DNA from: an uncultured bacterium
Lineage (GTDB): Bacteria; Auribacterota; JACPWU01
Length of the DNA: 64,000 bases
Assembly: GCA_964640155.1 (NCBI GenBank)
Contig: CAZXEQ010000002.1
Span: 322,342 to 386,341 of the forward strand
Direction: 5' to 3'
Below the pieces are notes generated by a model. It saw nothing but the letters and a program-made list of their open reading frames with translations. It ran no database searches and was not told the origin of the DNA. Below, in pieces: positions 6,347-63,427 of this stretch (within the stretch, counting starts at the first letter, position 1; each line of letters starts with the position of its first letter). Position numbers and translations under genes: made by a program.

Positions 6347-6976
6347 ATGAAGAAAATAGAGGATCCAACAACCTTACACCATTTATCTTTGCAGGCTAAG
6401 AAGTATCTGAGTGCATTTACAGATCGATCCATAAGCAACATGCTACCCTTTGTAGCTCCAAAAGTTCTTGAAAAATTAGGTGGAGAAGAAAATTTTGAAC
6501 AGTGCATGAAGCAGATTTTTTCAGAAGCTGATGGGAATTTAGATAAGGCAGCAATGCTTGATATCACAATTCAAGATCCTAAAGAAATATGTTCTATAGA
6601 TAGTAAGTTTATAAGTATATTGAAAAGCGAAGTTCCTTTTGTATTAGAAGGAAAATTGCTTGGGATAATCAATGGGATTACTATCGCTCTTTCGTCTGAT
6701 AAAGGTGAACACTGGGTATTTGTTGAAGGTACAGAAAATGGATTATCCTTACTTGATGAGAAAGAACAGGAGACGTTGGAACAAATAGGCCTCCCTAAAC
6801 CATCTTTTAAACCTGTGAAAGGTAGAAAAAGAATATACAAAGACCAATCAAGCATGCAAAGACATATGTTACTTATGACGTTATCAATTATGAAGCCGGA
6901 AATGGTTGCGGACAGTGCGTTGGATTTACGTAAATTTGTACAGCAATTGTTTAAGAATGCAAAACCATATGAATAG
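6347..6976 (+). CDS. hypothetical protein
   Basis: ORF 6206-6976 trimmed to first Met downstream of the tRNA (MKKIED...); no recognised domain. Confidence 0.4.
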   Translation: MKKIEDPTTLHHLSLQAKKYLSAFTDRSISNMLPFVAPKVLEKLGGEENFEQCMKQIFSEADGNLDKAAMLDITIQDPKEICSIDSKFISILKSEVPFVLEGKLLGIINGITIALSSDKGEHWVFVEGTENGLSLLDEKEQETLEQIGLPKPSFKPVKGRKRIYKDQSSMQRHMLLMTLSIMKPEMVADSALDLRKFVQQLFKNAKPYE

Positions 6977-14282: not shown

Positions 14283-14371
14283 GGAGAGGTGGCTGAGTGG
14301 CCTAAAGCGACGGCTTGCTAAGCCGTTGTACTGTTAATTCAGTACCGGGGGTTCGAATCCCCCCCTCTCCG
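14283..14371 (+). tRNA. tRNA-Ser (anticodon GCU)
   Basis: Long variable arm, anticodon loop uuGCUaa, T-arm GGTTCGAATCC, acceptor ggagagg/cctctcc. Confidence 0.85.
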
Positions 14372-14445: not shown

Positions 14446-14564
14446 GGGAGGCCTGACATAGCATAATGCAAATCATGCACTGCATGATTTGCGACTGTTA
14501 GGAGGGCCGGGTGGCCGACCGGAGTGAGTGTAACGAACGTAGGCGCCGAATCCCCCCCTCTCCG
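14446..14564 (+). repeat. tRNA-downstream element copy 3
   Basis: GGGATTCGAAGGGAG start, internal hairpin (gcaaatcatgca/tgcatgatttgc), GGGTGGCCGACCGGAGTGA module, ends with cgaatccccccctctccgaagttta duplicating the tRNA-Ser(GCU) 3' end and flank. Confidence 0.5.
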
Positions 14565-31008: not shown

Positions 31009-33210
31009 TCACTCAACATGAATATTCACTTTTGCTGAAGCGCCTGTTTCGTCTGTAACGTAAATCTCATGCAGGCCAGGTTGAGGAATCCAAAAAAGAG
31101 CTTTTTCTGGACGGGTTTTCCCTATGAGAAGCCCATTCACAAACCACCATCGCCAGGAATGAGGCGATCCTCCTATAGACTGAAGAGGTAGTTTTTGATT
31201 TTTTTGAAAAGAGGGGGCGTCTAAGAAAAATTTTTGATTTGAAGAAATAGAAGAAATGGTTAGTTTAGAAATATCTTTTTCAAGTTCAATAGATTTTGCT
31301 AAACCTTCGTCCTGGATTTGAGGCCATGGTTTATTTTTCGGCTTTAAGCAAGATAGAAGTTTTAAAGTCAAGGGTGCTGCCAAAGTTTGTCCAACTAATT
31401 CATGAGAGCCTTTCCCAAGAGAGTTTCCAAGCCATGTTACAAGTGTGTATTCATGTGTTACTGCTACACACCAAGCATCTTTGTGTGCACTGCTTGTGCC
31501 TGTTTTCCAGGCAGGATTAAATGGAATGGCTTCAGGACAAACAGCGTAAGTTCGTTTGGGATCACTTAAGGCATTCAGTACTTGCCAGCATGCTTTTTGA
31601 GATAATATATTTTGATGGTGTGAATAAAAGTGCGGTCCTTTAAAAAGTGGCGGGTCCTGCCACTCGTCAGCCCCAACGTGCTCACTAAAAGTTGCGCGCG
31701 ATGGGGCCCCCCGCCGAGTGTCACCCGCATCTGTAAAGGACACACTTTTATCTACAGGATTTACATTTTGTGTGGCAGTGTCAGTATTAGATGTTAAAAG
31801 AGGAATATAAGTGACAGGCAGATGAATTCCTCCTCGCCCCAGTGTTGCAAAAGCTTCTGCAAGTTCTATAGGAGAAGCCTCGGCTCCTCCTATAGCTAAA
31901 GAAAGGCCATATCGATCTGGAAATTGCTCCAGTCTTTTAAATCCTAAACTTTGTAAAATTCCAACTACGCGAGCGATGCCTATTTTAGAAAGTAAAATCA
32001 TGGCGGGGATATTTCGACTTTGAGCAAGTGCTTCTGCCGCACACATAAAGCCTCTAAAAGTATGATCAAAATTGCTAGGGGTGTAGCCCTCCCAGCTCAA
32101 AGGAAGGTCTTTTAAAATTGTTGTGGGGGTGCAAATTCCTGCTTCAAAAGCGGCTGCGTAAATAAATGGTTTTAATGTAGAACCTGTTGAATAGTAACGG
32201 TTGGATAAATCTAAATTATTTGCATCGTCACATAAATTAATCGAGGCCAAACACTCAGAAGTTTGTGTGTTTAAAAGAACAAGTGAAAGAGCGTTGATCT
32301 GAGAAGATTTTAACTTTTCGAATTCTTGTTTGGCTATGAGGGTTAACTGCTCTTGAATATCTTTATCTAAAGAGGTTTTAAATTTTCCTTGTTGAAATTT
32401 TTCCTTTAAGGTCAGTAAGATGGGCAGAATTCCTGATTTTTTTTCTTGTGGCAGAGCTTGCCATGTGGCTTGAATAGGTTCTTCAATAGCGCGTGCGTAA
32501 TCTTGCTCAGAGATCATTTTTTCTGATAACATTCGAAACAAAACGTGATTACGTCTCTTAAGTGCACGTTCTATAAAACGATCTGGGCGATAGCGATTGG
32601 GACTTTGAGGAAGGCCTGCCAAAAGGGCAGCTTGGCTTAAAGAAAGATTGCGACATGAAATTCCAAAATATCTCCAGCTTGCAGCACCTACCCCGATTAA
32701 ATTCCCTCCCAAAGGACATCGATTGAGATATTCTGTCAAAATTTCATTCTTACTCATTTTTCTTTCTAATTGATAAGCACGAATAGATTCAATCAGTTTG
32801 GATGAGAAAGTCCGTGGTTTTGGATAACGTAAATGTTCAACTTGCATGGTAAGAGTGCTTGCGCCACGTATGATTTTCATGGCTTTAAAATCTTGCCAAA
32901 GAGCAGCAGCAACGCCAATCCAGTCCACTCCATGGTGTTGATAAAAACGATGATCTTCGACGGCAACAATTGCTTTAAAAAGATAAGGGCTTATTTCTTC
33001 TTCTTTTAATGGAAAATACCATTCATTTTTTTCTGAAACAAAAGCCCCCAAAGGCTTTCCTTCTCGATCTTCTATCCAAAGGCTGGGTGGAGGTTTTGGA
33101 GTGGGAGGATAAGACCAGGAGTAAACTGCAATAGAAAACGAAATACAAATAAAACTGAATACGCTAATAATTCCCAGTATGAAAATTTTGAAAGAATGTT
33201 TAATGGTCAT
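31009..33210 (-). CDS. pbpC: penicillin-binding protein 1C (transglycosylase/transpeptidase)
   Basis: N-terminal TM, glycosyltransferase motifs (EDHRFYQHHGVD; RGASTLTMQ), transpeptidase STGSTLKP; start overlaps stop of upstream A2M gene. Confidence 0.88.
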   Translation of the reverse strand: MTIKHSFKIFILGIISVFSFICISFSIAVYSWSYPPTPKPPPSLWIEDREGKPLGAFVSEKNEWYFPLKEEEISPYLFKAIVAVEDHRFYQHHGVDWIGVAAALWQDFKAMKIIRGASTLTMQVEHLRYPKPRTFSSKLIESIRAYQLERKMSKNEILTEYLNRCPLGGNLIGVGAASWRYFGISCRNLSLSQAALLAGLPQSPNRYRPDRFIERALKRRNHVLFRMLSEKMISEQDYARAIEEPIQATWQALPQEKKSGILPILLTLKEKFQQGKFKTSLDKDIQEQLTLIAKQEFEKLKSSQINALSLVLLNTQTSECLASINLCDDANNLDLSNRYYSTGSTLKPFIYAAAFEAGICTPTTILKDLPLSWEGYTPSNFDHTFRGFMCAAEALAQSRNIPAMILLSKIGIARVVGILQSLGFKRLEQFPDRYGLSLAIGGAEASPIELAEAFATLGRGGIHLPVTYIPLLTSNTDTATQNVNPVDKSVSFTDAGDTRRGAPSRATFSEHVGADEWQDPPLFKGPHFYSHHQNILSQKACWQVLNALSDPKRTYAVCPEAIPFNPAWKTGTSSAHKDAWCVAVTHEYTLVTWLGNSLGKGSHELVGQTLAAPLTLKLLSCLKPKNKPWPQIQDEGLAKSIELEKDISKLTISSISSNQKFFLDAPSFQKNQKLPLQSIGGSPHSWRWWFVNGLLIGKTRPEKALFWIPQPGLHEIYVTDETGASAKVNIHVE
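31627..31750 (+). repeat. palindromic repeat element (RPE-like) copy C, in frame inside pbpC
   Basis: Reverse complement translates without stops as KSVSFTDAGDTRRGAPSRATFSEHVGADEWQDPPLFKGPHF within the PbpC ORF. Confidence 0.7.
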
Positions 33211-36200
33211 GAATGTGAATGGGTTGCAATTTTCATTGTTTCATTGTCACGACTGATGCTGTTAATTGAAATATCATACATGCATTCAGCTTTTACAGGG
33301 GGAACAGTAAAAGTTCCAGGAGTCACAGCCCTGGCTAGATAAGTATATTGTGCTTTCCCTTTGTCTAACATTTTTCCGTAGAGCACAAGACGATCATCAC
33401 GAATATCGATATGACTATCCATAAATGTAGTTTGAGTAGGGTCTTTGAGAATAGAAGCTGAAGTTGCAAGCCTTGGATTTTCAATTTCAAGTCCAGCGGG
33501 AAGCAAATCTTCAATGACCATATTGTCATAACCCAAAGGACATTCTAGATGTATCTCTACTTGTATCAAGTCTCCACTACAAATTTTATCTAGGGCGATT
33601 GCGTGTCCCTGTTGATCAAGATATCTTTTTCTCACACTTATCCCATGATCTTCATTTAAAGGAGGCTCTTTGGCAAGGCCTGTGATGCTCCATGCAACAT
33701 AGCCCTTTGTTTTTTCAGCTCCTGAGATTTTAACTGAAAATTCTTTCCCATTCAGAAATTTATTTGAAGAATTCCAGAGAAGAGAATCTCCATTCCCTGT
33801 TTCAGAAATTTTCTCTGTCCCCGCCCAAAGTTCGGCTGATGTAAAAGGTTCTCCAAAATCTGTTTCCTTTAAATAAGACCCCAGTGCAAGAAGAGCAAAA
33901 GCATGATCTTGCGTACTTTGCCATTTTTTTTCGCCGCCGGCTTGGGCAAGTTCTTTAACCAATTTGGGAAGGGCTGGATTTTGTGGATCAAGTTCAATCA
34001 GACTTTGAATTAAAATAGCTTGATCTCGAATAGGGGACCCAATGTTTCCAGATAGGTCTCTGTTTTGGCGAGGGTGAGGTAGATTCTGAGGAATTAACTT
34101 TAAGGCCAAATCTCGTCTGCCAGAATAAAGCCAGGCCAGGGCAAGATAAAAGCGAGTTGAAGGATGGATGCTAGAGGAGATAGAAGTTGGGAGAGTGGAA
34201 GGTCTTTGAAAAATATCTTCCAGACGTGACATCATGGATCTCTGGGGATATCCCGCTTTAGCAAGAACAAAACAGGCATAAGCCTGAATCTCTAAAATAT
34301 TGGGTTGATCAGAACTTTCGTTTAATAATTTTCGAACATAATTTAAAAGTCGATCGCGAAAATCAGTTGGAATAGAGAAGCCGGCGTTTTCTGCTTCGGT
34401 GATAAAATGTGTTGCATAAACACTGGCCCAGCTCCAGCTCTCAGTATAGCCAGGCCACATAGCAAGTCCCCCTTCAGCTGTTTGCATACTGATCAAACGA
34501 TTAAGAGCTGTTTCAACTCTTTGATGAATGTATTGAGTATTAAATGGTTCTGGGAAAATCTTCTCTCCTAGTTTTTGCAATCCAATGAGAGGAAAGGTGG
34601 TGCTAACCGTTTGTTCGGCACATCCATGGGGGTATTCATTGAGATAATCCAAAGCCTTTGTCAGATTTAAAGTGGGAAATGGAGTTACGTGAATATTCAA
34701 CTGTGTTGTTCCCTCAATCCATTTTTCTGGAATTCTGATTTTAAAATCTTGATGGGGTTTAAGGGTTGCATATCCTCCTTCAGAAATTGAAGGACAGGCA
34801 GGACGAATAGGGAATATGAGATTTTGCTGATATTCTTGTCCATTGAGTTGCGCTTTGATTTTAAGACGAGCTATTCCCATTTTATTCTTAGCTTTCAAAG
34901 GAATGGTGATCACGGTTTGAGCGTTATCGGGAATGGAGTTTGTAGTAAAATTGATTTTTCTTTCGGAGGAGTGTGGAAAATAAACAGGACTTTTATTGTC
35001 TAGTTCTATTGAGAGGTTAGCAATGCCTTCACTTCCCGTATGATTGAAAATGACAATCGGTATTTCAAAATGATCATTATTTGCAGCAAAGCGAGGAGTA
35101 GTACTTTGTAACATGAGAGGAGATTTAACAAAAATGGGCTTAGATGCTGATCCAAAAAATTTTTTAGAATGAGCAATGGCCATGACTCGCAATTGACCTG
35201 TGAATTCTGGAAGACGAAAATCAACTTTTACGTTTCCATTTTCGTCACAGCGAAGTACTTTTGAAACAAGTGCAACATTTTTCATACGTTGTATAGACAA
35301 TGGAGTTAAATGACGTGGCTCATAACCTCCATCTCCTCCCACCGAACTTTTAGGATTTATTTTTGGAATCTCTGGGAAAAGTTCTCCATAAAGATCTGAA
35401 ACAAATACGTTCAAAGCTCGATTTCGATGAAAGAATGAAAAAGGATCTGGGGGTGAGAAATTCGTGAGTTGAAGAATCCCTTCATCTACGATTAACAAAG
35501 TGACCCTTGCATTTTTAGCAGGTTTATTTTGAGGGGTTAAAACTTTTGCTTCAACACGGATTTTGTTTTTGGGCAGGATTTCTTTTTTTGTTTGAATCTT
35601 TATTTTCAGCTTTTGATCGTTATTGTTGATCGCAAGGCGAGTCACGCCAAAAGCACGATGGATTTTCCATGGAGCCTTGGAATGGACGGGCTGAATCACC
35701 GTCGCACTTACATAGGCATTGGGACGATAGCTTTCTAAAATATCAATCGGAATAGATATATGAGATTGTGTCATGGTCAGAACTTTGTGAAAGAGAACAT
35801 TCTCTGTTTCTATCGTTAAAAGAAGTTGCCCTGGGAAAGGACTGCGAACAATGACTTGCGCTTGACCTCCAACTTTCAAAGAGGACGAATATCTATTAAA
35901 GTGCGTCTTTTTAAAAAGAAGTGGGTCCTGCCGCTCGTCAGCCCCATCGTGCTCAGTAAAAGTTGCGCTCGATGGGGCCCCCCGCCGAGCGTCACCCACA
36001 TTTTTAGAATCATTTTTTAATTCTTTGCCCATAGGAATAATTTCAATTTGTAATTGCTCTGGGTTCTCTCGAGAGACTGAATCCTCCCAGCCATTTTCAC
36101 TGCTCACATAAAATCCATGTGAAGTGAAGCTGCCTGTTTGAGAATCTTTGATAGCAATCACATAAGACCCTTCACTGGGAGGAATGATTTCAAAATGTCC

Positions 36201-38948
36201 TTTCTCTTGTTCTAAAATTGCATAAGAAGAAGATGCTTTTTCCAGTATACGTGTTGAGTCATAATGATAGCTCCCATCGCGATAGGTCATGATATTGTTC
36301 CAAGTCTCACGAAAAAGTTGTATCTCCATTTGTTTCGAAATCTTGGCTATTTGCCCATGCCCAGAAACACATGCAATATCAAAAACATACGGAGAACCGG
36401 GCTGAGCTTTTTGATTTTGTTGAGGACGTATGCCGACATAATATGGAACAGTATCAATGAAAACTCTTTTTGTGGCACTGACAGCCCTACCGCCCATTTC
36501 TTGAACACTTCCCAGAACAGTTAATTGCCAGGGACCCGTATACGAGGGGGTTTCTTTTATAAGAGAGTTCGGGGGGTGATTGAGAAGAAGAGAAAGATCT
36601 ACTTTCCATTCACCTTTGCCTTTCTCATTTAATTTAATCTTAGGCGACTCAATCGATTGTCCTTGGGGAAGAATACCTCCAAGTGTTTTAAAAGCATTGG
36701 CAGAATCTGTGAAAGTCCATTCTTTCCAATGTTTGGGTTTGAATGGTGCAGGATCGAGACGACTTGAAAGTGTTGCATCTGTTCCTGAAGCAGGTTGTCC
36801 AAAAAGATAGTTTGCTGCAATATGAACTGAAAGAGATTGTGAGGATAAAGTATAGCGATCATGGCGAATATTTTTTAAATTTAAAGCAACTTTCATTCTA
36901 TCGGGAATAAATTCCTCAACAAAAAAAGAAGTTGTTCCAAATGTTTTAGCATCAGCATCTTTTGATTTTGGAAGGCCAATGGATACAGTCCAATTTCCAG
37001 TGGGAATATCTTGAGGTAATTTGACAGAAAGGTAAACCATTCCAGAACTGTCCACCTTGGCCATGTGTCCTTTCCAATTTCTCCCATCGGGCCTATAAAA
37101 TTGACACCAGACAGGAAATTCTTCGGGGGTACTTAAATGAGGCCCTCGAATGATTGCCCAGAGATGGACTTTTTCACCGGGTCTATAGGCTCCACGTTCA
37201 GAGTAGACAAAAGCTTCATAGGCTTTGGATGAATAAGGACTCCCAGAAATATCAAAATGAGAATAGGAAAGTTCGCTTGTTCTTAAATCTAACCATGTCA
37301 AATGGGCGGGCTCTGTGGCAGCGTTAAAATTTGCAACTACTACGACAGGTTTCTCATCGTTAGAGGTTTCAATGGTATTGATTTTAATAATACCATTTTC
37401 ATCAGAAATTCCTTCTCCCAAAAGTTGATTCTTATTGGAAAATAAGCGAATGCGTACATGCTCCATGGGTTTACCTGTACTTAAAGACAGAGTCCAAACA
37501 AAAAGACCATGAGGGAATCTCTTGGCCACTAAACCAATGTCAGATAATGTAACAACCGTTGTATCGGATAACTCCCAGGCATATCCTTGATTCTCATTCT
37601 CGGCTTTGATTTGAATTTCATAAACCCCATTTTGCTTGAGATTTTCAGGCAGGAGCTCATCCAAGGATAAATGAATATCCTGAACTTTATTTTTCTCCAT
37701 TTCTAATTTAAGAGATTTTTGTGCGATTACTTGACTAAAATGATGAAGACCCATCCATTGATTCTCATAAACCGTGTTTCTCCAATGGACAATATTATTC
37801 TCATACATTTTTGTGAGAGTGATTTGAATGTTTTGAACATTGATAGCGTGAGCTAGAATCATTCGATTCCCTTTAGCTCCCAAAAACCCATGATCCTGTT
37901 CAAACCACACAGAAGCCTTACGATCTGGGATAAAAACACTAAAGAGATCTTCCTGAGGATAATTTTTCGAATCATTTTTGATGCGAGGTGCATTTACTTT
38001 CAATGCATATCGGTTTCCAGGGATAAAATCTGCCTCAAGACTGACTCCAAACCATTCTCGAATCAGTGTGAAGGGTAAAATAGGTTCAATAGAAAGAATT
38101 TCTTTTAAAATTTCTATATCGACATCATTATTGAAATAAAGTTGCAGTCTAATTTTTCCTTTTGAAGAAGAATAAGGTTCTACTTTTGTAATCATTAAGT
38201 GGCGGTTAAGGGTCAATTGCGTTTCATAAAGATTGGTTAATCCTAAAGGCCCACTAATCCCACATAGTCCTTCTCGAATCCTTACAATCACTTGAAGATA
38301 AGAGGATATATTTTGATAGAGAAAAGGAGTGGGCTCTGTCATCACGCGTATCACATTTGCGGTTACGCCTTCATAAAGGCGAAAAGGGATTTTTTGATGA
38401 ACCAGAGATTCAATCTCCAGAAATTTTGCAACTTCAGTTGGAAGCATTTTGTCGTTAAATTCAATTTCAATCATAAACTGATTTTTTTCGTCAAAGGCTG
38501 CTTGGCGTACAGATAAAATTTGCAAGGCTGGGGTTTTGACGGTTGCAGAATACGACTGATTCAGTAAAAACCCTTCCTTGGACTTTAAAGAATGAAGAGG
38601 AAAAGTAAAAGTAAAGGCTGTTGCTTTGGGGAGGTCTTTCTGGGGTGTAAAAGTAAGCTTTCGAGTGTTCACCCATTCCCAATGTCCAGGGATGAGGTAA
38701 GACGCATCGCCTGAACTCTTGATGATGACTTTGGATGAAACATCTTCACAAACCATATCTAAATTAAATTCCCAGGATAAAACAGGCCGTGTTCCTGTCT
38801 CAATATTGTTTCCTGGGTTAAAGCGTTCTATTTTAAGAACATTGAGCGTTTTTAATTGATAAGCATGATGAAATGCTGCCCAGGCAAGAATATTTGTAAT
38901 TGCAAAACAAAAAACGGTTATCCAAAATCGTTTGTGTAACATGAACAT
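33207..38948 (-). CDS. alpha-2-macroglobulin family protein (bacterial A2M, thioester-containing)
   Basis: 1913 aa, N-terminal signal/anchor, thioester motif GCAEQ, large MG-domain architecture; genetically coupled to pbpC. Confidence 0.9.
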   Translation of the reverse strand: MFMLHKRFWITVFCFAITNILAWAAFHHAYQLKTLNVLKIERFNPGNNIETGTRPVLSWEFNLDMVCEDVSSKVIIKSSGDASYLIPGHWEWVNTRKLTFTPQKDLPKATAFTFTFPLHSLKSKEGFLLNQSYSATVKTPALQILSVRQAAFDEKNQFMIEIEFNDKMLPTEVAKFLEIESLVHQKIPFRLYEGVTANVIRVMTEPTPFLYQNISSYLQVIVRIREGLCGISGPLGLTNLYETQLTLNRHLMITKVEPYSSSKGKIRLQLYFNNDVDIEILKEILSIEPILPFTLIREWFGVSLEADFIPGNRYALKVNAPRIKNDSKNYPQEDLFSVFIPDRKASVWFEQDHGFLGAKGNRMILAHAINVQNIQITLTKMYENNIVHWRNTVYENQWMGLHHFSQVIAQKSLKLEMEKNKVQDIHLSLDELLPENLKQNGVYEIQIKAENENQGYAWELSDTTVVTLSDIGLVAKRFPHGLFVWTLSLSTGKPMEHVRIRLFSNKNQLLGEGISDENGIIKINTIETSNDEKPVVVVANFNAATEPAHLTWLDLRTSELSYSHFDISGSPYSSKAYEAFVYSERGAYRPGEKVHLWAIIRGPHLSTPEEFPVWCQFYRPDGRNWKGHMAKVDSSGMVYLSVKLPQDIPTGNWTVSIGLPKSKDADAKTFGTTSFFVEEFIPDRMKVALNLKNIRHDRYTLSSQSLSVHIAANYLFGQPASGTDATLSSRLDPAPFKPKHWKEWTFTDSANAFKTLGGILPQGQSIESPKIKLNEKGKGEWKVDLSLLLNHPPNSLIKETPSYTGPWQLTVLGSVQEMGGRAVSATKRVFIDTVPYYVGIRPQQNQKAQPGSPYVFDIACVSGHGQIAKISKQMEIQLFRETWNNIMTYRDGSYHYDSTRILEKASSSYAILEQEKGHFEIIPPSEGSYVIAIKDSQTGSFTSHGFYVSSENGWEDSVSRENPEQLQIEIIPMGKELKNDSKNVGDARRGAPSSATFTEHDGADERQDPLLFKKTHFNRYSSSLKVGGQAQVIVRSPFPGQLLLTIETENVLFHKVLTMTQSHISIPIDILESYRPNAYVSATVIQPVHSKAPWKIHRAFGVTRLAINNNDQKLKIKIQTKKEILPKNKIRVEAKVLTPQNKPAKNARVTLLIVDEGILQLTNFSPPDPFSFFHRNRALNVFVSDLYGELFPEIPKINPKSSVGGDGGYEPRHLTPLSIQRMKNVALVSKVLRCDENGNVKVDFRLPEFTGQLRVMAIAHSKKFFGSASKPIFVKSPLMLQSTTPRFAANNDHFEIPIVIFNHTGSEGIANLSIELDNKSPVYFPHSSERKINFTTNSIPDNAQTVITIPLKAKNKMGIARLKIKAQLNGQEYQQNLIFPIRPACPSISEGGYATLKPHQDFKIRIPEKWIEGTTQLNIHVTPFPTLNLTKALDYLNEYPHGCAEQTVSTTFPLIGLQKLGEKIFPEPFNTQYIHQRVETALNRLISMQTAEGGLAMWPGYTESWSWASVYATHFITEAENAGFSIPTDFRDRLLNYVRKLLNESSDQPNILEIQAYACFVLAKAGYPQRSMMSRLEDIFQRPSTLPTSISSSIHPSTRFYLALAWLYSGRRDLALKLIPQNLPHPRQNRDLSGNIGSPIRDQAILIQSLIELDPQNPALPKLVKELAQAGGEKKWQSTQDHAFALLALGSYLKETDFGEPFTSAELWAGTEKISETGNGDSLLWNSSNKFLNGKEFSVKISGAEKTKGYVAWSITGLAKEPPLNEDHGISVRKRYLDQQGHAIALDKICSGDLIQVEIHLECPLGYDNMVIEDLLPAGLEIENPRLATSASILKDPTQTTFMDSHIDIRDDRLVLYGKMLDKGKAQYTYLARAVTPGTFTVPPVKAECMYDISINSISRDNETMKIATHSHS
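35898..36010 (+). repeat. palindromic repeat element (RPE-like) copy D, in frame inside the A2M gene
   Basis: Encodes VGDARRGAPSSATFTEHDGADERQDPLLFKKTHF inside the A2M ORF, homologous to the peptide encoded by copy C. Confidence 0.65.
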
Positions 38949-39008
38949 TCTCCAAAATCCAAAGTTTTTTAGTTAGAAATAGTAGGAAAATAATCTCACA
39001 TATAAACT

Positions 39009-39156
39009 TAAGTCCTCGGGCTTTTCACCGTCCTTTAGGATGAGGTAAGAAACGGGGCCTGCCACTCGTCAGCCCTACCGTGCTCATGAAAAATTGCGCG
39101 CGGGGCGGGGCTCCCCCCGCCGAGTGTCACCCGTATTGTAAAGGACACACTTTTTT
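39009..39156 (+). repeat. palindromic repeat element (RPE-like) copy E, long variant
   Basis: Core as other copies plus 5' extension gtcctcgggcttttcaccgtcctttaggatgaggtaagaaacgg shared with copy G. Confidence 0.7.
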
Positions 39157-39368
39157 ACACACGATCGGGAAAATTTTCTTAAAAACACTTTGAGATTTTC
39201 GAGAAGCAGGGTCAAGAAGAAAACAGAAGTGATTTATAAAATACGAAGTAACTCGCTGAAGGAGAGAAAGTAGGGATAAAATTTTTTTGAAAAATTATTT
39301 TACAATTAAAAAAACTTGAAGATTTTTCTAAATCTCAAGCTCGAAGTTTAAGGGATTTCTCAAAAGGA

Positions 39369-40508
39369 TTAAAGCTTTCTTACTTTGACATGAGCTTCTT
39401 CTAATAAGCGTAGACTTACATCCCCTACAGAATAGGCATGACTATAAACAACTTCTTTGATGCCACTATTGATAATCATTTTGGTACACATCAGACAAGG
39501 TGAAAAAGTAGAGTAAATTGTAGAGTCTTTAATGCTGACCCCATGATAAGCCGATTGTGTGATCGCATTTTCTTCAGCATGTGAGCATAAACATTCATCG
39601 AGCTGAGTCCCTTGTTGGGAGAAGCTGTTGCATCGTAGACAACCTCCATCCATACAATTCTTAGTACCACGGGGCGTTCCATTATAGCCCGTGGCAATGA
39701 TGCGTTTGTCTTTAACAATAACCGCCGCGACTTTTCGTTTGATACAATTGCTGCGTAAGGCAACTACTTTAGCAATTCCTATAAAATAATCATCCCAGCC
39801 AGGTCGACTAGAATTTGTTCCATATTTTTTTAATACCTCAATCACTTGTTCGTAAATTTTTTCAAGAGATCCTGCATTCATTAAAGAAGTATCTGAAATG
39901 GCTTGTGTTTGGTCTAGTTGTTGATGGTTAGGATTTTGAGATGAACGTTCTGCGTTTTCCAGACGTATAAATTCTTCTAGAGTCTGAGGGTCATTCTCTC
40001 TTCCTCGGGCTTTGATTCGCTCAAAACGTAGTTCCAGAGGAGCATCAATAAAAAGCAGAATAAAATCTTTTCTTTTCTTGAGGGATTTAGCTTCTTCAGG
40101 ATTGCGGATAGAATCTACAACATAATTTTTATCAACATCTAGAGTAGACGAAATCTTATCTGCTAAAACGGAAGGTCCAAACTGACTACGAAGTTCATTC
40201 CCAACTTGAATTAAATTTTCGCGTGTGATTTGAGTCCGTCGATTTTTGAGTTCATCTCGAAGAACATCCGAAAGCGAGGAATAAATAAACCCCCGTTGTT
40301 TTAAAAATTCTGCGATAACTCCTTTGCCTGAGCCATTTCTTCCAGTGAGTCCAATAATCACAAGATTAGAATCCTTTCTTATCAATTCTACTTTCTCGAT
40401 AGATTCTACTATGAGGCGAGTTGTTGGACAACCATTGTTTAAACTAAAAGCGAGAACGATTTTATAATTAAAAGTGTGTACTTTTAAAAAAGTGGCAGAG
40501 CCTGCCAC
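39369..40508 (-). CDS. P-loop nucleotide kinase / dCMP-type zinc deaminase fusion protein
   Basis: N-terminal IIGLTGRNGSGKG Walker A (CoaE/dNMP-kinase-like), C-terminal deaminase with CSHAEENAI and SPCLMCTKMI zinc motifs; the annotated Met start lies inside repeat copy F so the true start is uncertain. Confidence 0.7.
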   Translation of the reverse strand: MAGSATFLKVHTFNYKIVLAFSLNNGCPTTRLIVESIEKVELIRKDSNLVIIGLTGRNGSGKGVIAEFLKQRGFIYSSLSDVLRDELKNRRTQITRENLIQVGNELRSQFGPSVLADKISSTLDVDKNYVVDSIRNPEEAKSLKKRKDFILLFIDAPLELRFERIKARGRENDPQTLEEFIRLENAERSSQNPNHQQLDQTQAISDTSLMNAGSLEKIYEQVIEVLKKYGTNSSRPGWDDYFIGIAKVVALRSNCIKRKVAAVIVKDKRIIATGYNGTPRGTKNCMDGGCLRCNSFSQQGTQLDECLCSHAEENAITQSAYHGVSIKDSTIYSTFSPCLMCTKMIINSGIKEVVYSHAYSVGDVSLRLLEEAHVKVRKL

Positions 40509-40596
40509 TCGTCAGCCCCACCGTGCTCATGAAAAATTGCGCGCGGCGGGGCTCCCCCCGCCGAGTGTCACCCGCATATATAAAGTACACACTTTT
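40471..40596 (+). repeat. palindromic repeat element (RPE-like) copy F, overlapping the 5' end of the kinase-deaminase ORF
   Basis: Near-identical to copy B (aaagtgtgtacttttaaaaaagtggcag.gcctg...). Confidence 0.7.
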
Positions 40597-40831
40597 CTAC
40601 ACATCATCGCAAGAACTTCAATTAGAATATTTTAATTTTACTTTAATGATTTTTTAACCTTTCTACTGAGATAATGCCTCTGTTAAAAAAGGCAGCATTG
40701 TTTCAGAGATAAAAAAATCTTTTCTTCAAATAGGGGGTTATGGTATATTTTGCGCACCTTACTCATCATGTGGGATGATGAGAGGATGTAGTTCAAAGTT
40801 AATTATTTAAATCAAACCAAGGAGATCAGTA

Positions 40832-41398
40832 ATGAAGAAGTTATTAGCGATTGCCCTTCTTTGCTTAGGCGTAGCAGGTTATGCCAAGGCTGATGAAGGT
40901 TCAGCATGTGTGCTTCATGGTTTTTATCTTGAACCAACTGTAGAAGCTTTTATTCCTTTCAATGATGATTTGGATTCTACAGTTTATGCAGGCGGTAAAG
41001 GTGGATATCAGTTCAACGAATGGTTTGCTGCTGAAATCGAAGCAGGTTGGGCAAACCCAGATCTTGCTGATGTAGGTGATGTCTCCACAGTACCTTTGCT
41101 TTTCAATGCCCGCATTAATTTATGGCCTGGCGTTTACTGTGTTGATCCTTATGTATTCGGCGGTATTGGTATTGCTTTCAATGAACTTGATGGCGTTCCA
41201 GCCGGTGTTGAGATTGATGACAGCTTTGCAGGTCAAATTGGCGCAGGAATTGAATACCATATCAACGAATCTCTTTCAGCTCAGCTTGAGTTGGATTTCT
41301 ACTTTAACAGCCCCGATTTAAACGTCCCTTTATTAGATGAAGAGGATGTTGAATTAAATGCTTTCCGTATCGGTGGCGGTATTACTTGGAGATTCTAA
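40832..41398 (+). CDS. outer membrane beta-barrel protein (OmpW/OmpA-like small porin family)
   Basis: Signal peptide, alternating hydrophobic beta-strand pattern, C-terminal aromatic ITWRF typical of OMP barrels. Confidence 0.6.
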   Translation: MKKLLAIALLCLGVAGYAKADEGSACVLHGFYLEPTVEAFIPFNDDLDSTVYAGGKGGYQFNEWFAAEIEAGWANPDLADVGDVSTVPLLFNARINLWPGVYCVDPYVFGGIGIAFNELDGVPAGVEIDDSFAGQIGAGIEYHINESLSAQLELDFYFNSPDLNVPLLDEEDVELNAFRIGGGITWRF

Positions 41399-41428
41399 TT
41401 TCTCAAATTTGAGAAATTATTTTTTAAA

Positions 41429-41456
41429 GGGCGGGATTATTCCCGCCCTTTTTCTT
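41429..41456 (+). terminator. rho-independent terminator after the OMP gene
   Basis: Perfect hairpin gggcggga-ttat-tcccgccc followed by tttttcttttt. Confidence 0.65.
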
Positions 41457-41770
41457 TTTAGAGATTTTTCAGAAAAAGGGTGTTCTTTGTAATGCGGATG
41501 ACACTTGTCGGTGGGACTGACAAGTGGTAGGAACCACTATTCCTACAAAGAATACACTTGCTATAATTAATGTTTATTTACATTCTTTAAATTGGTATTC
41601 TTATCCAGTATTAGCTTCGCCCTTGGAGGGGAGCCAACGGGCCTATCCAACATTGTGAGAAAAACATTCAAATCCTATTAAAGGGATATTGAAAGTTTTT
41701 CTTTCTCTAGATTTTGGCCCTGTCAGTATTCGAATGTCCAACGTGTGTCTTGGGGAGCCATAAAGCTATT

Positions 41771-43078
41771 ATGAAAGCGCCAAAAGTTTTAGTGGTAGAT
41801 GATGAACAGGGAATACAAGAATCATTAAAAATGATTTTAAAAGAAGATTATCATGTCTTCACTGCTCCAAATGGTGAAGAGGCTTTTAAAGTTTTAAGTC
41901 AAGAATCTCCAGATTTGGTTCTCCTCGATGTTTTATTGCCTGGTATGGGTGGTATTGAAATTTTAAAAAAAGTAAAGGTTTCTAACCCGCAAACTCAAGT
42001 CATCATGGTGACAGGACAGGGGAAATTAAAAACAGCGGTAGAAGCTATTAAACTAGGTGCTTTCGATTACATTCATAAACCTTTTGATATTGAAGAATTA
42101 CGCAGAGTGGTCAAAAAGGCCATTGAACAAAGAAAATTTAAAGAGAGTGTTGATTTTCTAAAAGTAGAAGCCAAGCGCTCTTCCCAATTTGATGGAATTG
42201 TAGGATTTAGTCAAAAGATGAAGGACTTATTTGAAATCATCTCTCGTGTGATGAATTCGAATTCGAATGTTTTAATTACAGGAGAAAGTGGCACGGGAAA
42301 AGAATTGGTAGCTCGAGCTCTCCATTACAATGGTGTGAGAAAAGAAGGCCCTTTTGTGGTGGTTCATACTTCGGCGATTCCAGATAAACTCTTGGAAAGT
42401 GAACTTTTTGGCCATGAAAAAGGTGCCTTTACAGAAGAATTTCGACGTGTAGGTGGCATAGAATCGATTCATGTAGATGTTCGCTTTGTGGCTGCGACCA
42501 ATAAAAATTTAGAAAAGGCAATTCAATCAAATGACTTTCGAGAAGATCTATATTATAGATTGAGTGTGGTTCCTATCGTATTACCTCCATTGCGGGACAG
42601 AAGAGAAGATATCCCCTTGCTTGTTTATCATTTCCTTGAACGCAATCGTGCAAATAATAAAAATACGAAGGTAGAGGGATTTTCTCAAGAAGCTTTAGAT
42701 GCTTTAAGCTCTTATGATTGGCCCGGAAATGTTCGAGAATTACAAAATGTTATTGAAAACCTTGTTGTTATGAGCGATCGATATTTGATACAAATCGAAG
42801 ATCTTCCTCAAACCATTCGTATGAATCAATTGCAAAAAACTTTTTTTAATCGCAGTTCCCAAAATGGGGCTTCTTTGGAAGAAGTGGTTGCTGCTTTTGA
42901 GAAACAATTGATTTCTGAAGCCCTGCAAAAATGTAATGGTGTTTATACGCGAGCGGCTAAGCTCTTGGGAACAACGAGGCGTATCTTAAAATACCGTATT
43001 GATCAATTACAAATTGTGATTGAAAAGCGTAGACGACGAGTCTCTAAAATTAAAGAAGCAGTCCCTGTTTCTTTGTAA
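41771..43078 (+). CDS. sigma-54-dependent response regulator (receiver + AAA+ + Fis-type HTH), apparently lacking the Walker B region
   Basis: Receiver domain (VLVVDDE...LLDVLLPGMGG), Walker A GESGTGKE, ESELFGHEKGAFTEE (GAFTGA variant), R-finger FREDLYYRL, sensor II WPGNVREL, C-terminal HTH; start set at internal Met (MKAPKV). Confidence 0.8.
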   Translation: MKAPKVLVVDDEQGIQESLKMILKEDYHVFTAPNGEEAFKVLSQESPDLVLLDVLLPGMGGIEILKKVKVSNPQTQVIMVTGQGKLKTAVEAIKLGAFDYIHKPFDIEELRRVVKKAIEQRKFKESVDFLKVEAKRSSQFDGIVGFSQKMKDLFEIISRVMNSNSNVLITGESGTGKELVARALHYNGVRKEGPFVVVHTSAIPDKLLESELFGHEKGAFTEEFRRVGGIESIHVDVRFVAATNKNLEKAIQSNDFREDLYYRLSVVPIVLPPLRDRREDIPLLVYHFLERNRANNKNTKVEGFSQEALDALSSYDWPGNVRELQNVIENLVVMSDRYLIQIEDLPQTIRMNQLQKTFFNRSSQNGASLEEVVAAFEKQLISEALQKCNGVYTRAAKLLGTTRRILKYRIDQLQIVIEKRRRRVSKIKEAVPVSL

Positions 43079-43267
43079 ACATTTTTGTACAATCTTGTAT
43101 TTCTCGCCATTTTTGTTCATTCATATGCAAGTGCAATATCTTATCAGCATCCATCTCCTCACTTCTTAACTTGTTATGATTTAAATAGTTAAGACTATTT
43201 TTGTTGTTATTTTTATTTTTGGCATAAAACTTGATTATCCATAGGATGAGTGCTTCCTCGTTCAAAT

Positions 43268-43312
43268 CCCGCGGAAGGTAGGCAAAAACCTGCTTTCCGT
43301 GGGAATTTTTTT
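43268..43312 (+). terminator. candidate rho-independent terminator
   Basis: Stem cccgcggaagg / cctgctttccgtggg (with G-U pairs) followed by aattttttt. Confidence 0.4.
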
Positions 43313-43325
43313 GATATCCCTAATA

Positions 43326-43475
43326 AAAAGTGTGTCTTCGGACTTTTCGCCACCTTTAGGATTATATAAGAAACGGGTCCTGCCACTCGTCAGCCCCACC
43401 GTGCTCATAAAAAATTGCGCGCGGTGGGGGGCCTCTCCGCCGAGTGTCACCCGTAGTGTAAAGGACACACTTTTT
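43326..43475 (+). repeat. palindromic repeat element (RPE-like) copy G, long variant
   Basis: TIRs aaagtgtgtc / aaaggacacac; 5' extension cttcggacttttcgccacctttaggat shared with copy E. Confidence 0.7.
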
Positions 43476-44152: not shown

Positions 44153-44224
44153 GCTGGTGTAGCTCAACGGTAGAGCACCTGATTTGTAATCAGGCGGTTG
44201 CGGGTTCAAATCCCATCACCAGCT
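44153..44224 (+). tRNA. tRNA-Thr (anticodon UGU)
   Basis: gctggtgTAGCTCAACGGTAGAGC, anticodon loop uuUGUaa, T-loop TTCAAATCC; one apparent T-stem mismatch. Confidence 0.7.
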
Positions 44225-44277: not shown

Positions 44278-44412
44278 ATGGGAGGATTTGAAGGGAGCTC
44301 CGACGCCTTTATGATGCTGATCATGCGGTGCATGATCAGCGACGTCTAGTCGGAGCGGGTGGCCGACCGGAGTGAACGAAGTGAACATAGGCGCCAAATC
44401 CCATCACCAGCT
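44278..44412 (+). repeat. tRNA-downstream element copy 4
   Basis: GGGAGGATTTGAAGGGAG start, long hairpin (gctccgac...gatgctgatcatgc-ggt-gcatgatcagc...gtcggagc), GGGTGGCCGACCGGAGTGA module, ends with caaatcccatcaccagctgtt duplicating the tRNA-Thr 3' end. Confidence 0.5.
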
Positions 44413-46475: not shown

Positions 46476-47672
46476 ATGGCTAAGGAAAAATTTGAGAGAA
46501 AGAAACCACATGTAAACGTGGGAACGATTGGACACGTAGATCATGGTAAAACGACATTGACCGCAGCATTGACCAAAGTACTGTCAAAGAAGGGTCAAGC
46601 CAAAGAAATCACCTATGCCGACATCGCCAAAGGCGGAGTCGTGCGAGATGACTCAAAGATTGTAACCATTGCCGTATCACACGTAGAATACGAAAGCACC
46701 AATCGACACTATGCGCATATCGATTGTCCAGGACATGCCGACTATGTCAAAAACATGATCACTGGAGCAGCCCAAATGGATGGAGCCATTCTAGTGGTAA
46801 GTGCAACTGATGGACCCATGCCCCAAACAAGAGAACACATCTTATTGGCAAGGCAAGTCGGAGTACCTAACATCGTCGTATTCTTAAACAAATGTGACAC
46901 CGTAGATGATCCAGAACTATTAGACCTCGTAGAACTAGAAGTAAGAGAACTATTAACACAATATCAATTCCCCGGAGACAAAACTCCTATCGTCAGAGGA
47001 AGCGCATTAAAAGCACTACAGGGAGACACGAGCGAACTGGGAGAGCCATCCATTGCTAAACTACTAGAAGCATTGGACAGCTACATTCCAGAACCCAAAA
47101 GAGAAATCGACAAACCCTTCCTCATGCCCGTAGAAGACGTATTCAGCATCACTGGAAGAGGAACCGTAGCAACGGGAAGAATTGAAAGAGGCATCGTAAA
47201 AGTAGGAGAAACCCTAGAAGTCGTAGGACTCAAACCCACTAAAAACGTCGTCGTCACTGGAGTAGAAATGTTCCGAAAAGAACTAGACCAGGGACAAGCA
47301 GGAGACAACGTAGGAGCCTTGCTTAGAGGAGCAGAAAAAGACGACATCGAAAGAGGACAAGTCTTAGCGGCACCCGGAAGCATCAAGCCGCATACCAAAT
47401 TCAAAGCAGAAGTCTATGTCTTGAGCAAAGAAGAAGGAGGAAGGCACACACCCTTCTTCAATGGATACAGACCTCAATTCTACTTCAGAACAACGGATGT
47501 GACTGGAGTGGCGAACCTAGCAGGTGGAATAGAAATGGTAATGCCTGGAGACAACACGGCATTAGAAGTAGAGTTGATCAGTCCAATTGCAATGGACAAG
47601 GGCTTAAGATTTGCAATCCGAGAGGGAGGCAAGACCATCGGAGCAGGTAGAGTTACTGATATTATTGCGTAA
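46476..47672 (+). CDS. tuf: elongation factor Tu (copy 1)
   Basis: [11 protein letters not shown]1 motif, [12 protein letters not shown]; 398 aa; nucleotide-identical to copy at 62231-63427. Confidence 0.95.
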
Positions 47673-62230: not shown

Positions 62231-63427
62231 ATGGCTAAGGAAAAATTTGAGAGAAAGAAACCACATGTAAACGTGGGAACGATTGGACACGTAGATCATG
62301 GTAAAACGACATTGACCGCAGCATTGACCAAAGTACTGTCAAAGAAGGGTCAAGCCAAAGAAATCACCTATGCCGACATCGCCAAAGGCGGAGTCGTGCG
62401 AGATGACTCAAAGATTGTAACCATTGCCGTATCACACGTAGAATACGAAAGCACCAATCGACACTATGCGCATATCGATTGTCCAGGACATGCCGACTAT
62501 GTCAAAAACATGATCACTGGAGCAGCCCAAATGGATGGAGCCATTCTAGTGGTAAGTGCAACTGATGGACCCATGCCCCAAACAAGAGAACACATCTTAT
62601 TGGCAAGGCAAGTCGGAGTACCTAACATCGTCGTATTCTTAAACAAATGTGACACCGTAGATGATCCAGAACTATTAGACCTCGTAGAACTAGAAGTAAG
62701 AGAACTATTAACACAATATCAATTCCCCGGAGACAAAACTCCTATCGTCAGAGGAAGCGCATTAAAAGCACTACAGGGAGACACGAGCGAACTGGGAGAG
62801 CCATCCATTGCTAAACTACTAGAAGCATTGGACAGCTACATTCCAGAACCCAAAAGAGAAATCGACAAACCCTTCCTCATGCCCGTAGAAGACGTATTCA
62901 GCATCACTGGAAGAGGAACCGTAGCAACGGGAAGAATTGAAAGAGGCATCGTAAAAGTAGGAGAAACCCTAGAAGTCGTAGGACTCAAACCCACTAAAAA
63001 CGTCGTCGTCACTGGAGTAGAAATGTTCCGAAAAGAACTAGACCAGGGACAAGCAGGAGACAACGTAGGAGCCTTGCTTAGAGGAGCAGAAAAAGACGAC
63101 ATCGAAAGAGGACAAGTCTTAGCGGCACCCGGAAGCATCAAGCCGCATACCAAATTCAAAGCAGAAGTCTATGTCTTGAGCAAAGAAGAAGGAGGAAGGC
63201 ACACACCCTTCTTCAATGGATACAGACCTCAATTCTACTTCAGAACAACGGATGTGACTGGAGTGGCGAACCTAGCAGGTGGAATAGAAATGGTAATGCC
63301 TGGAGACAACACGGCATTAGAAGTAGAGTTGATCAGTCCAATTGCAATGGACAAGGGCTTAAGATTTGCAATCCGAGAGGGAGGCAAGACCATCGGAGCA
63401 GGTAGAGTTACTGATATTATTGCGTAA
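62231..63427 (+). CDS. tuf: elongation factor Tu (copy 2)
   Basis: Identical in nucleotide sequence to 46476-47672 as far as I can read it; canonical fusA-tuf-rpsJ position. Confidence 0.95.

Follow-up and report, generated by a model that had tools for sequence, protein, structure and literature searches.

Does a repeat element supply the start of a gene, or does it merely lie next to it? This question is raised by positions 38949-40831 of a 64,000-nucleotide (nt) stretch of DNA (contig CAZXEQ010000002.1 of assembly GCA_964640155.1), which was analysed over its full length and is called the window in the following. The region consists of a single minus-strand gene, encoding a protein with a kinase-like and a deaminase domain, and the two intergenic spacers next to it. 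Two copies of a repeat, named E and F, flank this lone gene, as an earlier note on this DNA had described, and the longest open reading frame (ORF) begins inside copy F. The earlier note had left two explanations side by side: either the element provides the start codon together with the 5' untranslated region (UTR) or promoter, or translation begins at a non-ATG codon just upstream of the P-loop. We consider it highly probable that E and F are separate insertions, resembling miniature inverted-repeat transposable elements (MITEs), beside a conserved gene, that this gene starts with the GTG at 40361 and that copy F contributes no coding sequence.

The longest ORF covers 39369-40508 on the minus strand and comprises 379 codons. 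Its first codon, at 40508-40506, falls within copy F. Depending on whether the edge of the inner inverted repeat (40470) or of the full element (40458) is taken as the border, 13 or 17 codons lie inside the copy. The claim that copy F gives about the first 13 codons and the Met therefore stands for the codons, which number 13-17, and falls for the Met, which is a GTG and not an ATG. The reported absence of an in-frame Met before the P-loop is borne out by the sequence: there is no in-frame ATG between the first codon of the ORF and the P-loop GLTGRNGSGKG, and the ATG nearest to the ORF start, at 40530, is out of frame.

Homologues were searched in a collection of 5.8 billion proteins, of which 5129 matched with E <= 1e-10. 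Among the best 120 of these 5129, nearly all are 329-335 amino acids long and cover 87% of the 379-residue ORF, from residue 50 to residue 379. The family alignment was built from 18 sequences, the ORF and 17 homologues, of which 13 are short (329-349 amino acids) and four are longer. All 13 short homologues start with MIIGLTG, or with LII or MIV in place of the first residues, precisely at codon 50 of the ORF. The extensions of the four longer proteins are mutually unrelated; an internal MIIGL coincides with codon 50, and M or I is still found in that column. This codon of the ORF is the GTG at 40361-40359. The start codon at the orthologous loci is ATG in L002, L005, L006 and L007 and GTG in L001, which is contig JAYRIK010000241 of the metagenome-assembled genome (MAG) GCA_041906865.1, labelled Candidatus Auribacterota. 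In-frame stops 1-19 codons 5' of the start are present in all five loci. Because both the N-termini of the homologues and the start codons of the orthologues match the GTG at 40361, the real coding sequence is 39369-40361 on the minus strand (stop codon 39371-39369) and not 39369-40508; a non-ATG start at the P-loop, the second explanation of the earlier note, is strongly supported by the same match. The protein has 330 amino acids and begins MIIGLTGRNGSGKG. A Shine-Dalgarno-like AAGGA at 40372-40376 (minus strand), 10 nt 5' of the GTG, is conserved in L001, and translation from the GTG directly before the P-loop would proceed via this putative site.

L001 also offers the comparison with an orthologue lacking the repeat that had been named as a check. 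Its protein is 91% identical to that of the window, and the gene order is shared, with an outer membrane protein (OMP) beta-barrel gene, the divergent deaminase gene and an alpha-2-macroglobulin-like gene. The deaminase gene of L001 has a GTG start and neither E nor F beside it. About 160 nt are missing exactly at F and exactly at E, the flanks align on both sides, and the spacers measure 309 and 256 nt in L001 versus 470 and 420 nt in the window. The empty sites contain a single GAGAAAAAT at the place of E and GTACAAAC at the place of F. Read from this comparison, the deaminase gene was in place before E and F inserted.

The sequence in front of the start codon is conserved as well. The 88 nt from the left target duplication of F to the start codon are 88.8% identical between the window and L001, the third codon positions of the deaminase gene 59.5%. 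This start-proximal block has three 1-nt gaps relative to L001, and L001 carries an in-frame TAG 10 codons 5' of the start; the block is therefore not coding and appears to be conserved as regulatory DNA. Between copy F and the start codon a promoter-like TTGTCC-17-TAGAAT was found by consensus scan at 40403-40431 on the minus strand. Both hexamers are identical in L001, with three substitutions in the spacer, and this site is most likely the native promoter, for which it is a candidate by its consensus match. The extension of 49 codons at 40362-40508 (minus strand), which if translated would encode MAGSATFLKVHTFNYK, has no counterpart among the homologues and is, judged from the sequence, non-coding; it comprises the putative promoter, the 5' leader and the edge of copy F. 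The extension exists by chance, as no in-frame stop happens to lie between the GTG in copy F and the real start. With the TAG and the three 1-nt indels in a locus that lacks the element, an element-supplied start is not supported. We infer that copy F is not transcribed within the deaminase mRNA.

In the same comparison the spacers of both sides, 40617-40831 between F and the OMP gene (93.5% identity) and 39175-39368 on the 3' side of the deaminase gene (80.5%), are more similar to the orthologous MAG than the synonymous sites of the gene (59.5%). Conserved hairpins, among them CTCATCATCCCACATGATGAG, lie in the block 5' of the OMP gene, where a long leader, a small RNA or regulator sites may be located.

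The repeat family was delineated by a repeat search, a MAFFT alignment of the copies and an nhmmer profile run across the window. A 47-nt repeat core occurs four times with at most three mismatches, where no occurrence is expected. Seven full copies of 148-175 nt were found within 21.5 kb of the window, all on the plus strand, at about 22024 (A), 30874 (B), 31625 (C), 35896 (D), 39003 (E), 40469 (F) and 43325 (G). Copies E and G are a long variant with about 24 additional nt in the left arm. Copy E (175 nt; 38992-39166, plus strand; nhmmer E = 1.2e-37) is located 202 nt 3' of the deaminase stop and 43 nt 5' of the start codon of the alpha-2-macroglobulin-like gene (38948). Copy F (151 nt; 40458-40608, plus strand; nhmmer E = 7.4e-42) lies 96 nt 5' of the true start, in the intergenic region between the divergent deaminase and OMP genes. 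The presence of both copies had been noted correctly before, with limits that were too short and without the 8-bp duplication that accompanies each of them.

Copy F consists of nested inverted repeats, GAT..TGTGTA..AAAAGTGTGTAC ... GTACACACTTTT..TACACA..ATC, around a G+C-rich core hairpin. In the predicted fold the arms of the terminal inverted repeats, AAAAGTGTGTaCTTT and AAAGgACACACTTTT, pair with each other, as do the outer GAT..TGTGTA and TACACA..ATC; the end sequence of the element is GATnnTGTGTAnnAAAAGTGTGT. The whole copy folds into one long hairpin, and the predicted RNA of 40466-40600 reaches -57 kcal/mol on the plus strand and -62.9 kcal/mol on the minus strand (z = -7.3 and -8.0). 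The best-conserved part is the G+C-rich core of 90 nt, which forms an imperfect hairpin with compensatory changes in five of its 27 pairs, such as G-C in place of A-U in three copies and U-A in place of C-G in two. An eighth copy of about 85 nt (41465-41565), internally deleted, was seen in the opposite orientation on the minus strand. It retains the arms and, as a compensated variant, the outer stem of the core (CACTTG...CAAGTG), and is without the central G+C-rich hairpin. The full copies share the plus orientation regardless of the direction of the neighbouring genes (22024-43475). GC skew is positive over 1-64000, so the plus strand is probably the leading strand. The uniform orientation of the seven full copies, for which the chance is about 1 in 64, is suggestive and could hint at replication-linked or single-strand mobilisation.

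Each copy is accompanied by direct duplications of 8 bp. Those of E are AGGAAAAT at 38984-38991 and GGGAAAAT at 39167-39174, in the same register as at the other copies, and those of F are GCGAGAAC at 40450-40457 and GCAAGAAC at 40609-40616; both pairs match at seven of eight positions. Copy C likewise has a 7/8 match (TATATTTT and TACATTTT), and B and G have 6/8 each. As 7/8 matches are common in AT-rich flanks, a free search for 8-mer direct repeats was replaced by a permutation test in fixed register. Over the seven copies 40 of 56 positions match, compared to 19.6 for permuted pairs, and only 4 of 5040 permutations reach 40. Since the duplications of E and F differ from each other, the two copies are independent insertions. 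A composite transposon or cassette bounded by E and F was also considered and is ruled out, because L001 has the gene at the same place with neither copy, because the duplications differ and because there is no match between the left flank of E and the right flank of F. The bracketing of the gene reflects the local density of the repeat, with seven copies in 21.5 kb, and not a unit.

Two further copies lie inside genes, and the host ORFs stay open through both of them, which is not applicable to E and F. Copy C (31614-31761) is found in frame inside ORF 31009-33210 on the minus strand, which encodes a PBP1C-like protein; it interrupts the transpeptidase domain and adds ...GDTRRGAPSRATFSEHVGADEWQDPPLFK... 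to it. Copy D (about 35887-36030) is in frame inside the alpha-2-macroglobulin-like ORF 33207-38948 on the same strand, where it adds ...GDARRGAPSSATFTEHDGADERQDPLLFK... between the bMG6 and the bait-region domains. The L001 orthologue of this gene (MAG GCA_041906865.1) also contains copy D in frame, at L001 positions 6363-6508.

The repeat does not belong to any known RNA family. An Rfam scan of the whole window at gathering thresholds returned tRNAs only, and a permissive scan of 38900-40900 gave two matches at chance level (E = 0.3 and 0.83), far under the gathering cut-offs. A two-block pattern of the repeat was searched in 185,579 species genomes and hit one contig, which is a second contig of the MAG that contains L001 and carries further copies; the same pattern had zero matches in JGI metagenomes. 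Matches to a 22-mer in two metagenome sequences and one viral sequence (JGI/IMG/VR) were dismissed as chance, with nhmmer similarity confined to the 22-mer itself. No published description of the repeat was found, although no literature search for MITEs by name was made, and the literature on palindromic elements in Chlamydiae and on Auribacterota yielded nothing relevant.

Two public short-read contigs of the same strain, from the Logan assemblies of SRR19881398 and SRR8893623, cover parts of the locus. L011 corresponds to 39115-40529 and L004 to 40561-43396 of the window, and both are identical to it. L011 ends inside copies E and F, L004 inside F and G. The sequence of the window is therefore confirmed independently, and the repeat breaks assemblies. 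The 379-residue form is on record as a gene call on L011 (1415 nt), while an exact-protein look-up found no record of the forms with 330 and 338 residues.

We assign the repeat to MITE-like elements because of its small size, its many copies, its inverted-repeat ends, its target duplications and the empty orthologous sites. In this scenario a small non-autonomous element would have spread through the genome of the lineage, mobilised by a transposase supplied in trans, and two of its copies would have inserted next to a conserved, vertically inherited gene, one into each of the flanking intergenic regions. Like bacterial MITEs, for example the Correia elements of Neisseria, the repeat is small, dispersed and multi-copy, has terminal inverted repeats and target-site duplications, contains no transposase gene and differs in presence or absence between orthologous sites; it is also mostly intergenic, near the starts or ends of genes, and the whole element can form a long hairpin. 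The likeness is one of features, and no sequence relationship is claimed. Correia elements duplicate TA, in contrast to the 8 bp found here, and a further difference is that all seven full copies of the window are in one orientation on the leading strand. The copies C and D resemble the Rickettsia palindromic elements, which are likewise palindromic repeats tolerated in frame within protein genes. This likeness concerns behaviour and not sequence, the host is an uncultivated bacterium of the Planctomycetes-Verrucomicrobia-Chlamydiae (PVC) group, and the intergenic copies E and F contribute nothing to any protein. REP and BIME elements are imperfect palindromes of 20-40 bp without target duplications; with 151-175 nt and 8-bp duplications, the repeat does not belong to that class.

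Several observations weigh against the combined reading of MITE-like insertions beside a gene with its own start and promoter. In the window, no autonomous element sharing these ends turned up, and nhmmer gave no extra matches to the ends only. The 8-bp duplications of E and F are imperfect, and single matches of this quality are frequent in these AT-rich flanks. The spacing of 10 nt between AAGGA and the GTG is rather long. An in-frame TTG at 40385, the one further candidate in the window and giving 338 amino acids, is a possible start in the source genome; it is the less likely one, being not conserved and in a frame which is closed by TAG in L001. The promoter scan returned four hits in the region, compared to 5.3 expected from shuffled sequence. 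The edge of F carries a second site resembling a promoter, TTAAAA-17-TAAAAT (40487-40459, minus strand), which is directed at the gene and through which F may contribute to transcription.

In ORF numbering, residues 52-179 of the protein match Pfam AAA_18 (38.8 bits) and AAA_17 (37.2 bits), both above their cut-offs, and residues 238-356 match dCMP_cyt_deam_1 (PF00383) with 89.6 bits at a cut-off of 25. Among structures in the PDB the N-terminal half matches kinases of the AdkA/UPF0200 type (3h0k, 3lw7; E = 2.5e-8), and the 150 C-terminal residues match dCMP deaminases (2hvv, 4p9c; E = 7e-26). The zinc-binding and catalytic motifs H-A-E (H310, A311, E312) and P-C-x-x-C (P337, C338, C341) are invariant in the 18 aligned sequences. 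The C-terminal zinc deaminase domain with these motifs resembles ComEB-type dCMP deaminases, from which the protein differs by its N-terminal AdkA/UPF0200-like kinase domain.

That the 379-codon ORF is nevertheless a genuine N-terminally extended isoform, with coding sequence derived from the element, appears extremely improbable to us. The frame is indeed open from 40508, a gene caller produced the same form on a public contig, and two other genes of the window read through the same repeat family in frame. The frame open in copies C and D, however, is a different one, and the public call was made on the 1415-nt contig that ends inside copy F. All homologues lack the extension, and the start-proximal 88 nt, with frame-breaking indels and a stop in L001, are conserved in the manner of non-coding DNA. 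The GTG at 40508 is preceded by the G+C-rich hairpin instead of a Shine-Dalgarno sequence. A weaker form of the same idea is that copy F was co-opted as promoter, as part of the 5' UTR or as both, with translation still starting from the GTG at 40361. Outward promoters are carried by some MITEs of other bacteria, the Correia elements among them, and the site TTAAAA-17-TAAAAT at the gene-proximal edge of F points to the gene. We regard this as distinctly unlikely. AT-rich DNA of this kind yields as many promoter-like hits by chance, and L001 keeps an intact promoter-like site and a leader downstream of the insertion point; the deaminase gene therefore does not need F, and the promoter or 5' UTR role suggested by the earlier note finds no support. 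Outward promoter activity is also not a property of the family, since the left end differs in copies E and G.

The repeat could also be something other than a passive insertion, namely a structure-constrained, strand-biased element with a role for the host, which rewires the expression of its neighbours and is possibly mobilised as a single strand. This proposal, which we hold to be unlikely, is prompted by the compensatory changes in the core, by the common orientation and by the in-frame retention in two cell-envelope genes, for one of them in two species. If it were true, E and F would act at the level of RNA or DNA, for example as hairpin terminators or insulators, stabilisers of mRNA or outward promoters, the deaminase gene and the alpha-2-macroglobulin/PBP1C operon would be rewired, with E only 43 nt before the start codon of the operon, and single-strand mobilisation might explain the orientation bias. 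No site resembling a terminator was detected by the scan in either E or F. The G+C-rich hairpin is unlikely to be a strong terminator, as its minus-strand T-run is 6-7 nt away from the stem, and strong termination by the repeat is also made unlikely by the two copies that are read through within ORFs. A further proposal concerns the protein: the locus might be an AvcID-like toxin-antitoxin or anti-phage dCTP deaminase system with an inhibitory RNA encoded by the upstream repeat. Defensive dCTP deaminases combine an N-terminal kinase-like P-loop with a C-terminal zinc deaminase (bioRxiv 10.1101/2021.04.26.441389), and AvcD, whose domain order is also that of the window protein, is inhibited by the non-coding RNA AvcI (PMC10511110). 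The protein further matches the NCBIfam model of anti-phage dCTP deaminases (NF041025, E = 2.3e-39) and PADLOC dCTPase (E = 6.8e-56). Still, the NF041025 score of 135.5 bits remains well below the curated cut-off of 400, the PADLOC match spans only profile positions 145-489 of 630, and the protein has 330 amino acids, whereas the studied defensive enzyme has 576 and the family is defined by more than 350 (bioRxiv 10.1101/2021.04.26.441389). The orthologues L002 and L005-L007 lie in varied housekeeping contexts beside genes for YchF, Dus, DnaA and aconitase, and orthologues 60-90% identical occur across MAGs labelled Chlamydiota and Omnitrophota, unlike the sparse defence genes with their fast turnover. 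Compared to the NF041025 and AvcD families, the gene is syntenic with L001 and not sporadic, and it is outside defence islands in the five loci examined. Neither does it have a gene-specific upstream RNA as AvcD does: the repeat occurs in seven to eight copies in 64 kb, two of them within other genes, and is absent 5' of the 91% identical orthologue. As F is one of many copies of an element that the closest orthologue lacks, an AvcI-like role is excluded in practice, and the defence proposal as a whole is very improbable. We read the protein as a conserved enzyme of nucleotide metabolism, with dCMP or dCTP as putative substrate, which shares the architecture of the defence family without being a member of it.

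With the reading of E and F as MITE-like insertions beside a gene that starts at 40361, the apparent start supplied by the element is an artefact of ORF calling, which is already listed in a public gene catalogue as a product of 379 amino acids. The locus represents ordinary biology and leaves the knowledge of MITEs and of dCMP deaminases unchanged. The repeat itself is an undescribed MITE-like family, seen in one other MAG, which fragments short-read assemblies and is usable as a marker of insertion polymorphism among close relatives. The in-frame copies in the PBP1C-like and the alpha-2-macroglobulin-like genes add further cases, outside Rickettsia, of the 'selfish DNA in coding sequence' known from that genus.

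On the other side of the deaminase gene, copy E ends 43 nt before the ATG of the alpha-2-macroglobulin-like gene. The promoter of that gene must therefore be located inside or upstream of E, unless it is transcribed together with the deaminase gene. Copy E is probably part of its minus-strand 5' leader, and the idea of the element as a 5' UTR may fit this gene better than the deaminase gene.

Some other features of the window were recorded. Just after the OMP gene, at about 41432-41461, a perfect G+C-rich hairpin with flanking A- and T-runs, AAAAAGGGCGGGATTATTCCCGCCCTTTTT, looks like a bidirectional intrinsic terminator. A repeat of 92 nt, unrelated to the family of copies A-G, is present at 14463-14554 and 44311-44402. 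Its two copies are 77% identical, and each is located about 90 nt 3' of a tRNA gene (tRNA-Ser at 14283-14371 and tRNA-Thr at 44153-44224). Finally, two ORFs of 398 codons each (46476-47672 and 62231-63427) are 100% identical over their first 300 nt. Their position among tRNA genes and other large ORFs suggests what we presume to be a duplicated tuf gene (EF-Tu), possibly homogenised by gene conversion.

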